From NCBI GenBank assembly GCA_016206685.1, contig JACQRB010000023.1, positions 29,287 through 93,286 on the forward strand: DNA of 64,000 bases, read 5' to 3'. The translations under genes were made by a program, and so were the position numbers. Position 1 is the stretch's first letter. Every line of letters begins with the position of its first letter. Shown here piece by piece: positions 6,736 through 19,583 of the stretch. Below the pieces are notes generated by a model that saw only the letters and a list, made by a program, of their open reading frames with translations, was not told where the DNA came from and searched no databases. The DNA comes from Candidatus Omnitrophota bacterium. GTDB lineage: Bacteria; Omnitrophota; Gorgyraeia; Aquiviventales; Aquiviventaceae.

Positions 6736-7829
6736 GCACAGGAACCCGCGCCCACTTGCCCCTCGTTTCCAAAGACGGCTGGGAACACCGCCTTACGGCA
6801 GCGCTGACAAGCCAGGGGCTGTTTGGAGCCGTCGGGATCATTCACCGCCAGTCGCAGCCGCTTCATCTCTTCGCTATTCCAAATCGCATGGAGACGCTGG
6901 TCGAACACGTTGCCGATGTGAAGACTCAGCCCATCGAAACTGCAGCACGGATGAACCGATCCGTCATTGTTGATCGAGACGCGCTGGTACGGCTGAGGGC
7001 AATCTCCCACTTGCAACAAATCGGTATCCGGAATGCGAAATTGCTGCTCGAGCTGTGCATAGTTCGAGTAGCTGGCGGCAGGGTTGACAAACGACTGGAT
7101 ACAAATGAAATCCACTCGGTCTTTCCAATACGCCACGAACTCGTCAAGCTCCTTGTGGTTGAGCTTGCTCTTGACGAACGACACCCGGGTAATTGGGAGT
7201 TGCTTGCCCTGGGCTTTTTTCATCTCCAGAAAGCGGTTGATGTTGCCCATCACCTGCTGAAAGTTGCCGCCCGGCCGCACGTGGTTGTAGGTGTCTTCCC
7301 GAATGGCATCGAGCGAGAAATAGAGTTTCGTGAGCCCTGCATTGAGGAGTTCCTGCGCGCGGGTTTCCGTCAGCATCGTCGCATTCGTCAGGATGATGAC
7401 ATCCAGGACCCCGGCCTGGCTGGCGTAGCGGATGTAGTCGTGGAGATTGCGGGTTCCCAGCGGTTCATTATTGACATTCAGGGTGACGGAGGCCAGGCCG
7501 TGTGGGACCCCCTCATCGATGATCTCCTTGAACTTCTCGAACGTCACCACGTTCTGGCGGTTCTGGACGGCGTACGGGTGGTTGGCATCAAACTCCTCCG
7601 GCTTGATCTGCAAGACGCACTGGGGACAGCGTAGGTTGCAGCCGTAGTACAGCTCAAAGTCGATGTGGATGGGGTAGTCCTGAACGACCTTGAGCTCTTT
7701 GGCCTCCTCCCACCGCTGCCGATAGGCTCGGTACGGCTCACCCAGGATCTGGGCGAGCTTCGCATCCGGATCTCCGGTCACGGTGACCTGCTTCCATGTT
7801 GGTTTGGACATCAGATCCTCCTCAGCCAT
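6732..7829 (-). CDS. radical SAM enzyme with C-terminal SPASM/twitch-type Cys-rich domain
   Basis: The CNLRCPQC (CxxxCxxC) radical SAM cluster motif is near the N-terminus. The C-terminal segment CPQPYQRVSINNDGSVHPCC...ACQRCRKA is SPASM-like. The start is uncertain: the track ORF runs to 7895, and internal Mets lie at 7829 and 7811. Confidence 0.7.
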   Translation of the reverse strand: MAEEDLMSKPTWKQVTVTGDPDAKLAQILGEPYRAYRQRWEEAKELKVVQDYPIHIDFELYYGCNLRCPQCVLQIKPEEFDANHPYAVQNRQNVVTFEKFKEIIDEGVPHGLASVTLNVNNEPLGTRNLHDYIRYASQAGVLDVIILTNATMLTETRAQELLNAGLTKLYFSLDAIREDTYNHVRPGGNFQQVMGNINRFLEMKKAQGKQLPITRVSFVKSKLNHKELDEFVAYWKDRVDFICIQSFVNPAASYSNYAQLEQQFRIPDTDLLQVGDCPQPYQRVSINNDGSVHPCCSFDGLSLHIGNVFDQRLHAIWNSEEMKRLRLAVNDPDGSKQPLACQRCRKAVFPAVFGNEGQVGAGSCA

Positions 7830-8673
7830 GAGGGAACACCGCGACCAGTGGCTGCGAGTGGCCTGGAGCGGCTCCAAATTCAACCAGCCGGACATTGAGG
7901 GCAGCAGCTTTCATGTGCTTTTTTGCTCTGGGATAGCTGTGCTCTGTAAAATGGAAGAGGTTGGCCGCCGCGACAGCGTCGGCTTGACCCTCCACGACCC
8001 CTTGGACAAAATGGTCAAACGTCCCGGCGCCGCCGCAGGCGATCACGGGAATGTCCACGGCTTCCGCGACCGAATGCACCAACGCCAGGTCATATCCCTG
8101 CGCCATGCCATCTCGATCAATGGAGTTCAAGAAGATCTCCCCGGCGCCCTGCCGTTGGGCTTCCTGCGCCCACGCCACCGGCTCGCGCCCGGTCGGCGCC
8201 CGGCCGCAGTCGGCGACCACCTCATAGCGCCCGTCGTCATGGCGCTTGACGTCAATGGACACGACCAGGCACTGGCGCCCGAACACGCGAGCCGCCTCCC
8301 GCAGAAACGACGGCTCCTTGAGCGCGGCCGTGTTGATGACCACTTTATCGGCGCCGCGGCGCAGGCGCTGCGCGATGTCATCGAGCGTGCGGATGCCGCC
8401 GCCGAACGCCAGCGGCACGAAGCAGGCTTTGGACACGGCCGAGAGGATGTCCAGGATGTTCCGGAGACTTTTCACCTTGTGGTCGTCCCGCCGCAAATCG
8501 TGCTCCCCGTCCCGCGTGATATCGAGGTAGATCAGCTCATCCACCTGCCAGTCGGTAAACCGCTTCACCTGATGGATCGGATCGCCCAGGTTCTGGTGAT
8601 ACTGGAACTGCTCGCTGCGGACGATCAGCCCGTTCTTCAGCAAGATGCAGGGAATCAGCCGGGTCTTCAGCAT
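7822..8673 (-). CDS. HisF-like imidazole glycerol phosphate synthase cyclase subunit homologue (WbuZ-type, LPS/glycan amidotransfer)
   Basis: Internal start MLKTRLIPCILLKNGLIVRS...ELIYLDITRDG...IPVIACGGAGT matches the HisF N-terminus and the (beta/alpha)8 phosphate-binding motifs. The track ORF carries an approximately 35 aa spurious extension. Confidence 0.75.
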   Translation of the reverse strand: MLKTRLIPCILLKNGLIVRSEQFQYHQNLGDPIHQVKRFTDWQVDELIYLDITRDGEHDLRRDDHKVKSLRNILDILSAVSKACFVPLAFGGGIRTLDDIAQRLRRGADKVVINTAALKEPSFLREAARVFGRQCLVVSIDVKRHDDGRYEVVADCGRAPTGREPVAWAQEAQRQGAGEIFLNSIDRDGMAQGYDLALVHSVAEAVDIPVIACGGAGTFDHFVQGVVEGQADAVAAANLFHFTEHSYPRAKKHMKAAALNVRLVEFGAAPGHSQPLVAVFPHG

Positions 8674-17667: not shown

Positions 17668-18658
17668 TGCGGTACCTCGCTGCAAAAGGGTCTTCGATTT
17701 GCCGCATGAGAATCGCCTGATACATCTCCCGGACCCCATCCTCCACGGAGTAGGACACGCGATAGCCAAACATCCGGTGGATTTTGTCAAAGCTCACGTG
17801 GTAATCCCGCAGGTCGGGTGGAACGTCCGTCGTCTCAACCGTGATGCCCGGGAGGGTCCGCTTGACGATATCTCCGAGTTGATAGATCTGATAGTTTTGT
17901 TCGTTCGATCCGACGTTGAAAATGTGCCCTCGGACGAGATCGGCCGGTGCGCCAAGCGCCAGGATGTAGGCCCGGGCCGCATCCGCCACATGGACCAGCG
18001 GTCGCCACTGTTTGCCGCCGTAGACCGTGCAGGTCCCGCGCGTCGCCGCGTGCATCGTCAGGATGTTCACGATCAGGTCAAAGCGCATGCGCGGCGAGAG
18101 GCCGTAGATCGTCGCCATCCGTAGCACGCAGGGCGCAAACGGCTCGCTGGTCAGTGCCAGGATCTTGCGTTCTGCCTCAGCCTTCAGGCACGCGTAGAGC
18201 GAGATGGGCTTCAAGGACGCCTCTTCTGTCAGCACGCCCTCCTGAATGCCGTAGGCACTATCCGTGGAGGCAAAGAGGAAGCGTGGAATGCCCTGGGCTG
18301 CGCACGCTTCGGCAATGGCGACCGTCGCAACGTAATTGATCTCCCGCGTCTCCTGCGGGTCACGATCGCAGGCGGCGTCCCCGACCAGCGCGGCCAGGAG
18401 AATCACGGCGGCAACGCCCTGCAGCGCGTCCATGACGCGCTGCCGATCACGCATGTCCGCTTGAATCATCTCGAGATTCGGATAGGTCCGCAGGCCGGCC
18501 AGCGCCTCCTCGCCGAACAGCAAGCGATCAAAGACGCGCACGCGATAGCCAGCCTCCAGCAACTGGCCTGTCAGGACGGAGCCCAGATATCCCGCGCCGC
18601 CGAAGACCAGCACGGTGGGAGGGGCGGCGTCACGTGCGGTGTGCGACGGCGTGGTCAT
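17660..18658 (-). CDS. NAD-dependent epimerase/dehydratase (extended SDR)
   Basis: VLVFGGAGYLGS is a Rossmann GxxGxxG motif. YACLK is the Yxxx(K) catalytic motif. Confidence 0.7.
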   Translation of the reverse strand: MTTPSHTARDAAPPTVLVFGGAGYLGSVLTGQLLEAGYRVRVFDRLLFGEEALAGLRTYPNLEMIQADMRDRQRVMDALQGVAAVILLAALVGDAACDRDPQETREINYVATVAIAEACAAQGIPRFLFASTDSAYGIQEGVLTEEASLKPISLYACLKAEAERKILALTSEPFAPCVLRMATIYGLSPRMRFDLIVNILTMHAATRGTCTVYGGKQWRPLVHVADAARAYILALGAPADLVRGHIFNVGSNEQNYQIYQLGDIVKRTLPGITVETTDVPPDLRDYHVSFDKIHRMFGYRVSYSVEDGVREMYQAILMRQIEDPFAARYRNA

Positions 18659-19583
18659 CCACCTCATCCTGTTGTTGTCGAAACCACGCGATGGTCCGCA
18701 CCAGGCCATCAGCCAGCGACCAGCGAGGTGCCCAGCGCAACTCCCGCGCTGCCTTGGTCACGGCGGCCCGGGAATCATGGACATCGCCCTGACGTGGGGG
18801 CGCATACGTCATGTCGCTCGGGCTGCGGCTGAGGCTTAACACCTCGCGCGCGAGCTCGAGCACGGAGCGTGAGACGCCTGTCCCGATGTTGTAGACGCCC
18901 TGCCCGGCCTGCGCCGCCAGCAGGTTGGCATGCACCACGTCGTCCACGTACACGAAATCGCGCGTCTGCGTCCCGTCCCCGTAGATGATCAGGTGGTCGC
19001 CCCGTAGCGCCCGCGAGATAAACGCGGGGATGACGGCCGCGTAGTCCGAATCGGGCGATTGGCGTGGACCGAAGACATTAAAATACCGCAGCGCGACGTA
19101 GGGTAAGCCGTCAAGCTGGGCGTACATCTCCAGCAGATGTTCCCCACTGACTTTGGTCACGCCGTAGAGATTGGCCGGTCGCGGAGGTTCGCGCTCATCT
19201 TTGGAGCCTGCCGGCTCATCGGCATACACCGCCGAGGAGCTGGAAAACACGACTTTGCGCACACCATGGCGCGCAGCGCTGCGCAGCACATTGAACACCC
19301 CCACGGTGTTGACTTCCACACACCGGTGGGGCCGTTGGAAACTGTCTTCCATCGCGACGAACGCCGCCAGATGAAACACGACCTCTGCGCCCGCCATCGC
19401 CTCTTCCACCGCTGTGGCATCCGTCAGATCCGCTTCGATGAGCCGAGCCGACGCCGGCACATGCGCCCGCTGTCCTGTCTCAAAGTTATCGAGTACCGTC
19501 ACCACGACGCCTCGCTCGAGCAAAGCCGCCGCTACGTGACTGCCGATAAATCCGGCTCCACCGGTCACCAGCGCCGACTTCAT
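18630..19583 (-). CDS. NAD-dependent sugar epimerase (GalE-like extended SDR)
   Basis: The internal start is MKSALVTGGAGFIGSH, and YGVTK carries the catalytic Tyr/Lys. It has an ATGA overlap with the upstream gene at 19580-19583. Confidence 0.75.
   Translation of the reverse strand: MKSALVTGGAGFIGSHVAAALLERGVVVTVLDNFETGQRAHVPASARLIEADLTDATAVEEAMAGAEVVFHLAAFVAMEDSFQRPHRCVEVNTVGVFNVLRSAARHGVRKVVFSSSSAVYADEPAGSKDEREPPRPANLYGVTKVSGEHLLEMYAQLDGLPYVALRYFNVFGPRQSPDSDYAAVIPAFISRALRGDHLIIYGDGTQTRDFVYVDDVVHANLLAAQAGQGVYNIGTGVSRSVLELAREVLSLSRSPSDMTYAPPRQGDVHDSRAAVTKAARELRWAPRWSLADGLVRTIAWFRQQQDEVDDHAVAHRT

Follow-up and report, generated by a model that had tools for sequence, protein, structure and literature searches.

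Nonulosonic acids (NulOs), that is, pseudaminic acid (Pse), legionaminic acid (Leg) and their relatives, decorate flagella, capsules, lipopolysaccharides and S-layers, and their biosynthesis is a target for drugs and vaccines and is exploited in chemoenzymatic synthesis. Genome-based prediction of NulOs relies on finding six canonical enzymes. Between N-acetylation and condensation the nucleotide is normally removed by PseG or by LegG/NeuC, and NulO clusters normally keep this hydrolase inside the cluster. The cytidine monophosphate (CMP)-Pse pathway, known from Campylobacter and Helicobacter, consists of PseB, PseC, PseH, PseG, PseI, PseF and PseA, and CMP-Leg is made by LegB/C/H/G/I/F in C. 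jejuni and by SpsM/C/D/G/E/F in B. subtilis (PMC7439481). Here we analyse a NulO module in a 64,000-nucleotide stretch of a Candidatus Omnitrophica metagenome-assembled genome (GCA_016206685.1, contig JACQRB010000023.1, positions 29,287 to 93,286; hereafter the window), the whole of which was recognised as a surface-glycan locus in hidden Markov model (HMM) scans. The most unusual component of the module is a gene for a DUF692-like TIM-barrel protein (positions 14608–15432 of the window). Judged by its enzymes, the module appears to act like the Pse and Leg pathways while scoring below the membership cutoffs of both; it belongs to a recurrent, phylogenetically broad and apparently undescribed class of NulO clusters defined by this barrel.

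Genes were identified by Pfam and NCBIfam HMM scans of the open reading frames (ORFs) of the window, with bit scores read against the model cutoffs, and gene starts were adjusted according to domain boundaries and overlapping start and stop codons. All long ORFs lie on the minus strand, to which all window coordinates given below refer, and the GC content is about 63% throughout. From 7822 to 23630 the genes are tightly coupled, nearly every one of them overlapping or abutting its neighbour. Together with a tailoring and export tail that reaches to ~1213 they form one translationally coupled operon, and the module is part of one long co-directional operon running from ~23630 down to ~190. This layout is not due to chance, because start and stop codons overlap and because synteny is conserved in unrelated contigs. 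In the syntenic relative L006, with 63–80% identity, the order is SDR330-PFTS-SDR332-DegT-NeuB-DUF692-CTP_transf_3-...-WbuX (SDR, short-chain dehydrogenase/reductase). An earlier sequence-only reading of the same DNA had bounded the module at 7822–19583, which proved too narrow: a second DegT aminotransferase reaching to 23630 belongs to it as well, and the operon goes on into the tail. It had also overlooked the DUF692-like gene, because overlapping over-extended ORFs hid 14608–15432. These ORFs result from the high GC content: residues 1–205 of a 935-aa frame at 12419–15226 are spurious, and the real gene of 274 aa lies in a 365-aa frame at 14608–15705.

The 274-aa barrel gene sits between the genes for a NeuB-family synthase and a CMP-sugar synthetase fusion, its ATG overlapping the stop codon of the former and its own stop abutting the start of the latter. 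The product, a DUF692 family protein in the NCBI annotation, matches PF05114 (MbnB/TglH/ChrH, formerly DUF692) with 42.8 bits against a gathering threshold of 25, over the C-terminal half only (profile positions 120–254 of 263). No NCBIfam model covers the clade to which it belongs, the best being ApyH with 70.8 bits against a cutoff of 400. Structure prediction was confident (predicted local distance difference test, pLDDT, 92.6) and gave a xylose-isomerase-like TIM barrel. The nearest folds are those of MbnB/TglH (TM-score ~0.65), followed by the putative sugar-phosphate isomerase PA2260, endonuclease IV (Endo IV; TM-score 0.55–0.59), YcjR and the rhamnose/xylose isomerases. The 91 compared sequences of the clade all share E138, D173xxH176, D217xH219 and E245, and 88 of them have His at position 204. 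Compared by motif and spacing, not by alignment, the pattern E-N ... D-x-x-H-A ... H ... D-x-H ... E, with spacings of 35/31/13/28, matches the motifs formed by the E. coli Nfo ligands E145, D179xxH182, H216, D229xH231 and E261, where the spacings are 34/37/13/32. The barrel shares with Endo IV and with the multinuclear non-heme iron oxidative enzymes (MNIOs) of the DUF692 superfamily (MbnB, TglH, ChrH, ApyH) the fold, the C-terminal half of PF05114 and the E, D, H, DxH and E ligands. It differs from the MNIOs in that it lacks their two N-terminal His residues and has an Endo IV-like DxxH where they have DxxN (TglH has Asn where the barrel has H176). Unlike them it has neither a partner protein nor a precursor peptide, its gene stands among those for sugar-nucleotide enzymes, with which the domain also occurs in fusions, and its hosts include anaerobes. 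Our literature searches found no paper or curated model linking DUF692/MNIO proteins to sugars.

We used profile searches to establish how widely the barrel is distributed and in what company. With clustering at 50% identity, an exhaustive search gave ~113 clusters at E ≤ 1e-30, a number that rose to 651 at E ≤ 1e-10, and a GTDB scan with one genome per species gave 27 loci. The best 14 of these (E ≤ 1e-16) belong to Acidobacteria, Chloroflexota, Scalindua, Nitrospirae, an archaeon, Verrucomicrobia, Bryobacterales, Nitrospinaceae, Desulfobacterales and Parcubacteria. NeuB is encoded within 10 kb in 11 of the 14, and a PseC-like DegT aminotransferase and/or CTP_transf_3 is nearby in all of them; the 13 weaker loci, which act as an internal negative control, have no NeuB, PseC-like DegT or CTP_transf_3 at all (0/13). 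Overall, the clade was found in NeuB/DegT/CTP_transf_3 clusters of at least 10 phyla, the PseC-like DegT being the commonest neighbour of the DUF692-like genes. Three metagenomic relatives (L006, L007 and L008) share the NulO-cluster context, and in L007 and L008 NeuB, an acyltransferase, DUF692, CTP_transf_3 and DegT stand together. Several host lineages of the clade are obligate anaerobes, which makes the O2-dependent chemistry of MNIOs implausible here. The domain is also found in natural fusions: NeuB(+SAF)-DUF692 three times (P0078, P0090, P0112), CTP_transf_3-DUF692 twice (P0029 and L010:1519-3021, plus strand), DUF692-WecD-like GNAT twice (P0150, P0173), and once each with a left-handed β-helix (LbH) acyltransferase (DUF692-LbH, P0171) and a methyltransferase (DUF692-methyltransferase, P0066). 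Going by homology, the fusion partners are the enzymes that would act immediately before and after the hydrolase step, and the DUF692-GNAT domain order mirrors that of a PseG-GNAT fusion in locus L021. We conclude that the DUF692-like protein is a conserved, so far undescribed part of NulO clusters in many phyla.

The enzymes around the barrel were compared with the two canonical routes. The NeuB-family NulO synthase (345 aa, 15429–16466) matches PF03102 with 272.9 bits over profile positions 1–240 of 241 and ends in a SAF domain (PF08666, 29 bits). In the PDB its sequence matches are SpsE (1vli, 1e-57), NeuB and PseI (1.6e-45) and no others; by these matches and by the HMMs it does not group with KDO8P or DAHP synthases. 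It is closer to neuB/legI-type than to pseI-type synthases (NeuB_NnaB/LegI model TIGR03569, 324.5 bits, cutoff 399.65; PseI model TIGR03586, 261.6 bits, cutoff 340.25; both scores below cutoff). Its closest annotated homologues on plasmids carry the name neuB, and the nearest annotated relative stands beside a neuC. The PseC/ArnB-like sugar aminotransferase (399 aa, 16468–17667; PF01041, 445 bits) scores 364 bits with PseC (TIGR03588, cutoff 423.5), 351 with ArnB and 263 with LegC (cutoff 420). A second DegT-family aminotransferase (347 aa, 22587–23630; PF01041, 196.8 bits) lies far under both cutoffs (PseC 126.6 bits, LegC 120.9 bits); it is coupled to an RmlB/LegB-like SDR and has homologues in the NulO loci L014 (58% identity) and L019.

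All three SDRs that the sequence-only reading had placed at 17660–19583 and 21598–22590 were recovered as extended SDRs with PF01370 scores of 150 to 224.9 bits. The RmlB/LegB-like one, a candidate nucleoside diphosphate (NDP)-hexose 4,6-dehydratase (330 aa, 21598–22590, 189.8 bits), scores 171 bits with TIGR01181 and 146 bits with LegB (TIGR04180, cutoff 475). It is encoded directly upstream of the PFTS-motif protein described below in the window, in L004 and in the sister contig of L006, and beside DUF692 in L014. The GalE-like SDR (317 aa, 18630–19583, 224.9 bits) reaches 199 bits with GalE (TIGR01179), below cutoff, and its start overlaps the PFTS stop; the third (332 aa, 17660–18658, 150 bits) is 71% identical to its syntenic homologue in L006 and 49% identical to that in L012. 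None of the three matches PseB (TIGR03589, Polysacc_synt_2), for which they score only 40–52 bits against a cutoff of 407.75. The CMP-sugar synthetase is a trifunctional 730-aa fusion (12419–14611) of CTP_transf_3 (PF02348, 91 bits), a WecD-like GNAT (NF008212, 89 bits over the whole WecD model) and a PseH/RimL-like GNAT (PF13302, Acetyltransf_3, 122.5 bits), the last of which matches PseH weakly (37.6 bits, cutoff 93.1); the PseF score is 24.1 bits (cutoff 205.7). No hexapeptide (LbH) acyltransferase is encoded in the module, hence no LegH equivalog.

Compared with the CMP-Pse pathway, the module has in common a PseC-like aminotransferase, GNATs, a NeuB-family synthase, CTP_transf_3 and a WbuX/PseA-family amidotransferase. 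It lacks PseB and PseG, its synthase is nearer the NeuB/LegI model than PseI, and its scores with the Pse models are below equivalog cutoffs; the PseG-GNAT fusion of the related locus L021 is, by comparison, a Pse-type feature. In addition, the module carries the DUF692-like barrel, the PFTS-motif protein, a second DegT, three GalE/RmlB-type SDRs, an AsnB-type amidotransferase and a radical SAM (rSAM)/SPASM enzyme. With the CMP-Leg pathways it shares the LegB/RmlB-like 330-aa SDR, an SpsE-like NeuB and an SpsF-type CTP_transf_3 domain, whereas LegG/NeuC (Epimerase_2) and an LbH-type LegH are missing and the aminotransferase is nearer PseC than LegC. The synthase, the PseC/LegC-like aminotransferase and the synthetase fused to two GNATs hold as the sequence-only reading had described them, and HMM comparison does find homologues of several Pse and Leg enzymes, but these score below the equivalog cutoffs, and PseB, PseG, LegG and LegH are absent. 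With a NeuB/LegI-like synthase, a PseC-like aminotransferase and scores of this kind, the product cannot be assigned by homology to either the Pse or the Leg type. The CMP-activated di-N-acylated NulO with a probable acetimidoyl group that had been proposed remains, in its general form, what the gene set would suggest, though the amidotransferases may serve another sugar of this very large glycan locus.

No hydrolase of the NeuC or PseG kind is recognisable in the window, in agreement with the sequence-only reading. Pfam and NCBIfam scans of every ORF in the 64 kb revealed neither Epimerase_2 (NeuC/LegG, PF02350) nor PseG/Glyco_tran_28_C (TIGR03590/PF04101). Searches of the window by tblastn, with Epimerase_2 from L001 and L003 or the genuine PseG domains of L037 and L021 as queries, were negative, and so were searches with an HMM built from these two PseG domains and iterated HMM searches for hidden PseG or R-x-H-P-family-like hydrolases. 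In the wider clade, too, such enzymes are rare beside the barrel: Epimerase_2 is absent from all loci of the GTDB scan, and among 102 ORFs neighbouring the barrel in 11 loci, Pfam showed no Epimerase_2/Glyco_tran_28_C in the families with at least three members and no strong Polysacc_synt_2. In loci encoding the PFTS-motif protein the accompanying gene alternates, being DUF692 in the window and L006, Epimerase_2 in L001 and L003, and PseG in L037. The R-x-H-P family named above consists of proteins of 337–364 aa with an invariant R-x-H-P that recur in NulO loci after Epimerase_2 or before CTP_transf_3 (L001:4152-5177, L003:3157-4182, L007:5528-6622, L008:4245-5258 and L021:16841-18745); it had no Pfam or NCBIfam match, and a profile search of the PDB gave only CapG, at E 0.77.

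The PFTS-motif protein (673 aa, 19580–21601) had been listed as an unknown protein embedded in the module. Embedded it is, but it is not without a family: no match was found in the Pfam copy used, while TIGR04417 ('polysaccharide biosynthesis PFTS motif protein') scores 95.3 bits, just under its cutoff of 100, over profile positions 253–521, and a database protein 100% identical to it carries PF27878. A word-indexed search found seven homologues with 34–42% identity. The AlphaFold model obtained from their alignment (pLDDT 76.7, predicted TM-score 0.79) has a GT-B glycosyltransferase fold with two Rossmann domains. Its Foldseek matches (E 1e-7 to 1e-5) are UDP-GlcNAc 2-epimerases, including the NeuC-type 6vlc/6vlb, trehalose-6-phosphate synthases, polysialyltransferase and WaaA, with TM-scores of ~0.3–0.55 and generic GT-B glycosyltransferases equally good. 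The motifs E-x-H-P-x-N, KPKR, P-x-(S/T)-S-P and HDP are invariant, and PGSTP/PFTSP is conserved in the alignment. With the GT-B sialyltransferases (GT38/52/80) there is likeness of fold only (5wcn, E 1.3e-6) together with the invariant HDP, and no sequence-level match. The protein and its relatives (650–673 aa) contain a large helical insertion and have no sequence similarity to CAZy sialyltransferase families or to PseG/NeuC; what they share with PseG/NeuC, polysialyltransferase (GT38) and the T. forsythia Pse/Leg transferases (PMC5420450) is the GT-B model, the NulO locus and methyltransferase neighbours. The Tannerella enzymes, which are GT-B/TagB-like and adjoin a methyltransferase, provide a precedent for a transferase role of PFTS (PMC5420450). 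Literature searches on the motif itself found no paper.

Genomic context narrows the function further. Every recovered PFTS context has NeuB and usually CTP_transf_3 (L001–L006, L036–L038), and a NanM-like O-methyltransferase accompanies PFTS in five contexts, including L001, L003, L037 and L038; a subclass of DUF692-type NulO clusters also carries PFTS and a NanM-like methyltransferase. PFTS coexists with canonical Epimerase_2 in L001 and L003 and directly follows a genuine PseG (3hbm, 6e-9) in L037. Because of this coexistence the protein is unlikely to be a general hydrolase; it appears to be NulO-specific and is more likely a predicted CMP-NulO-dependent transferase. Two of the PFTS loci, L004 and L006 (both from GCA_023247285.1; ENA contigs K4A6xAnZ and G1QkSea3), come from a single sample and share an identical upstream part made up of a 73-aa fragment and the 330-aa SDR. 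They then diverge into two PFTS-NeuB modules, one with a GT2 glycosyltransferase and a carbamoyltransferase and the other with DegT, DUF692 and formyltransferases. This divergence looks like strain-level alternative alleles of a NulO locus.

Downstream of the CMP-synthetase fusion the window encodes the amidotransferases that had been read from the sequence as a WbuX/HisH/HisF trio and an AsnB-like protein, and all four were borne out. The AsnB-type glutamine-dependent amidotransferase (655 aa, 10448–12415) matches TIGR01536 with 385 bits (cutoff 267), PF00733 and GATase_7, and is also present in the PFTS locus L037. It is followed by three contiguous genes, for a WbuX/PseA-family N-acetyl sugar amidotransferase (385 aa, 9290–10447; TIGR03573, 347.4 bits, above the cutoff of 203.2), a HisH-like glutaminase subunit (208 aa, 8667–9293; TIGR01855, 227.5 bits, above the cutoff of 105.4; PF00117) and a HisF/WbuZ-like subunit (283 aa, 7822–8673; PF00977, 194.6 bits). 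The last of these scores 283.2 bits with WbuZ (TIGR03572), slightly under the cutoff of 299.7, and 233.8 bits with AglZ/HisF2. Acetamidino-forming systems such as WbuX/WbuY/WbuZ of E. coli O145, PseA, WbpG and AglX/Y/Z likewise have these components; an above-cutoff WbuX, a HisH-like and a HisF/WbuZ-like protein encoded in one operon are the common features. The window differs from them by the extra AsnB-type amidotransferase directly upstream, and its substrate is predicted from the gene neighbourhood. WbuX, which is 80% identical to its homologue in L006, recurs within or beside NulO genes in five independent loci (L001, L003, L006, L017 and L036), so that the natural prediction for the product is a CMP-activated di-N-acyl NulO bearing an acetamidino group. 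The NulO probably carries an acetamidino group made by the WbuX set.

Taken together, these data suggest a non-canonical CMP-5,7-diamino-NulO pathway with the DUF692-like enzyme in the slot for NDP-sugar release and 2-epimerisation, to which we give an about even chance. In such a pathway the RmlB/LegB-like SDR, alone or together with the other two, would form the NDP-4-keto-6-deoxy-N-acetylhexosamine, the PseC-like DegT would aminate C4, and the WecD-like GNAT of the fusion protein would N-acetylate the amino sugar. The DUF692-like metallo-TIM-barrel would then remove the nucleotide, probably with C2 epimerisation and non-oxidatively, through what we infer to be hydrolytic or lyase-type chemistry at a putative Endo IV-like di-metal site. 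NeuB would condense the released hexose with phosphoenolpyruvate, the CTP_transf_3 domain would yield the CMP-sugar, and WbuX, given ammonia by the HisH/HisF-like pair, would convert an N-acetyl group into an acetamidino group. More speculatively, the PFTS GT-B protein might transfer the NulO to an acceptor. A barrel providing C2 epimerisation, with or without nucleotide release, as LegG/NeuC does alone, is compatible with the observations because the synthase is NeuB/LegI-like, its nearest relative stands beside neuC, and DUF692, Epimerase_2 and PseG alternate at PFTS. Alternatively, since there is no PseB, the barrel may perform epimerisation or dehydration next to the 4-keto group. The more general claim, that the clade is the first non-RiPP (ribosomally synthesised and post-translationally modified peptide), non-oxidative branch of the MNIO/DUF692 superfamily, that its di-metal barrel frees 2,4-diacylamido-2,4,6-trideoxyhexose from the nucleotide, probably with 2-epimerisation, and so replaces PseG/LegG non-orthologously in a widespread and hitherto unrecognised NulO route of bacteria and archaea, and that PFTS is a new family of NulO glycosyltransferases, we put forward tentatively and hold to be somewhat less probable than the pathway itself.

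Several observations weigh against the assignment of the barrel to the hydrolase slot. Locus L021 carries DUF692 together with a clear PseG-GNAT fusion (TIGR03590, 113.7 bits), and L020 carries it with a homologous 568-aa fusion whose N-terminal domain resembles GT-B C-domains; these PseG-like-GNAT fusions weaken the case for DUF692 as a strict one-for-one PseG replacement. The window barrel has Gln, not His, at position 204, and in the clade two N-terminal metal ligands of Endo IV and the MNIOs are replaced by K/R34 and D/H84. Two aminotransferases and three SDRs exceed the needs of Pse or Leg synthesis, and part of the module may serve another sugar. The absence of a hydrolase applies to 64 kb of a 109-kb contig, and PseG/LegG could be encoded elsewhere; the barrel could be limited to epimerisation, or could have a keto-sugar or the NulO itself as its substrate; and the roles of the components are predictions from sequence and structure models. 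A rival reading is a canonical Pse/Leg-like pathway with PseG/LegG outside the visible region and the barrel as a tailoring enzyme. It could be a metal-dependent epimerase or dehydratase whose site of action adjoins a carbonyl, for example at C5/C3 of the NDP-4-keto intermediate (standing in for the PseB-type 5-epimerase), at C2 of the free hexose only, or on the NulO. Coexistence with PseG-like domains in L021 and L020, the sugar isomerases and epimerases among the structural neighbours (YcjR, PA2260, rhamnose/xylose isomerases), the frequent position of DUF692 directly after the PseC-like DegT, the lack of a true PseB (Polysacc_synt_2) in DUF692 loci and the view limited to 64 kb all fit such a pathway. 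Yet the hydrolase is missing from nearly all sampled DUF692 loci, though clusters normally keep one, the fusion partners NeuB, CTP_transf_3 and N-acyltransferases bracket exactly the hydrolase slot, and DUF692, Epimerase_2 and PseG alternate in PFTS loci; we therefore regard a tailoring barrel as a serious but somewhat unlikely explanation. That the barrel gene, the rSAM/SPASM enzyme and the ABC exporter constitute an MNIO-type RiPP system merely lying inside a glycan locus was suggested by the last two being typical RiPP genes (the exporter is MsbA/HlyB-like) and by PF05114 being otherwise known, to our knowledge, only from RiPP maturases. HMM scans and the overlapping codons leave no space for a precursor peptide in the window, the gene overlapping NeuB and abutting the CMP-synthetase, and reveal no MbnC/TglI/DUF2063-like partner; the N-terminal iron ligands are absent, the domain is elsewhere fused to NeuB, CTP_transf_3 and sugar N-acyltransferases, and the hosts are anaerobes. 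We reject this interpretation as extremely improbable. The MNIO landscape paper mentions no sugar context.

The missing NDP-sugar hydrolase and 2-epimerase could also be PFTS itself, as a very divergent GT-B relative of NeuC/LegG/PseG, with the DUF692-like protein doing something else. Its GT-B fold, its top structural neighbours, which are UDP-GlcNAc 2-epimerases including the hydrolysing N. meningitidis NeuC-type 6vlc/6vlb, and the embedding of its gene, through overlapping stops and starts, among precursor-forming SDR and DegT genes count against placing the barrel in that slot and in favour of PFTS. So does the invariant E-x-H-P-x-N loop after the first strand, a region in which, reportedly (Rangarajan et al. 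2009), PseG uses a His. However, genuine PseG or canonical Epimerase_2 stands alongside PFTS in other loci, generic GT-B glycosyltransferases score as well at the low TM-scores obtained, and most DUF692-type NulO loci are without PFTS. A simple PseG/NeuC replacement by PFTS was accordingly down-weighted, and we consider it improbable. A further question concerns the sugar on which WbuX/HisH/HisF and AsnB act. Further DegT/SDR proteins are encoded in the window, and at 43790–46203 there is a gene for a UDP-sugar 6-dehydrogenase-family protein and, behind it, one for a GFO/IDH/MocA oxidoreductase; this pair presumably resembles the WbpA/WbpB start of the diacetamido-uronic acid pathway, which makes diacetamido-uronic acid a possible alternative substrate of WbuX and AsnB. 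The set could thus form an acetamidino/amidated diacetamido-uronic acid or FucNAm in the same glycan (cf. P. aeruginosa WbpG/WbpS and E. coli O145), and the E. coli O145 cluster also contains a Neu5Ac pathway, yet its WbuXYZ proteins serve FucNAm. Set against this are the five independent NulO loci with WbuX, its direct coupling downstream of the CMP-synthetase fusion and AsnB in the window, and the established formation of acetamidino groups on Pse and Leg by PseA-type enzymes. Action on another sugar is, in our view, rather unlikely, and an acetamidino group on the NulO is preferred.

The cluster class occurs in at least 10 phyla, including candidate phyla radiation bacteria, anammox bacteria and an archaeon, without the canonical dehydratase and hydrolase, and current surveys would mis-score these organisms. 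If the proposed pathway is true, the MNIO/DUF692 superfamily, so far regarded as restricted to peptides and dependent on O2, would gain its first sugar-nucleotide branch, NulO biosynthesis would acquire a new enzyme family in the barrel, and with the PFTS GT-B protein two new enzyme families would follow. The natural DUF692 fusions (L010:1519-3021, P0029, P0078, P0090, P0150, P0171 and P0173) would be good constructs for biochemistry.

Below the amidotransferases the operon continues with the tail, which encodes an rSAM/SPASM enzyme (6732–7811; PF04055 and PF13186), a class-I methyltransferase (6010–6735), a CmoA homologue (5252 to ~6013–6100), a NanM-like sugar O-methyltransferase (4091–5236; TIGR04371, 75.7 bits), a HepA/MsbA-like fused ABC exporter (2268–4094) and an FkbM methyltransferase (1213–2271), after which comes a PgfS/ArnC-like GT2 glycosyltransferase. 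A conserved tail with this set of methyltransferases, rSAM/SPASM, NanM-like and FkbM proteins and ABC exporter follows PFTS in unrelated contigs (window 1213–7811; L001:12040-21939; L003:9596-17890), and rSAM/SPASM homologues are found in L001, L003, L006, L014, L015 and L019. Speculatively, AsnB, the second DegT, the rSAM/SPASM enzyme, the methyltransferases and the CmoA homologue may tailor the sugar or the glycan, the second DegT and the rSAM/SPASM enzyme perhaps as an oxidation-transamination pair like BtrN/BtrS that would add a further amino group, and the ABC exporter may export the lipid-linked glycan. The CmoA homologue (carboxy-S-adenosyl-L-methionine, cx-SAM, synthase; TIGR00740, 252.6 bits, above the equivalog cutoff of 193.3) stands beside the class-I methyltransferase and hints at carboxymethyl (cx-SAM) transfer to a sugar instead of tRNA.

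Just past the left window end the operon goes on with a sugar-1-phosphate nucleotidyltransferase (PF00483; window 1–230 / L041:2065-2796), which could supply an NDP-sugar precursor. Elsewhere in the glycan locus, two sugar C-methyltransferase genes (Methyltransf_13/14) at 36329–38350 and 47610–48893, the product of one being a 673-aa fusion with an RmlD-like reductase domain, suggest a branched-chain deoxysugar in the same glycan. Five GT-C glycosyltransferases, three of PMT_2 type and two of GT87 type, are encoded at 30357–32075, 40605–42356, 49891–52444 and 53183–54859 and imply several polyprenyl-phosphate-sugar-dependent periplasmic transfer steps.

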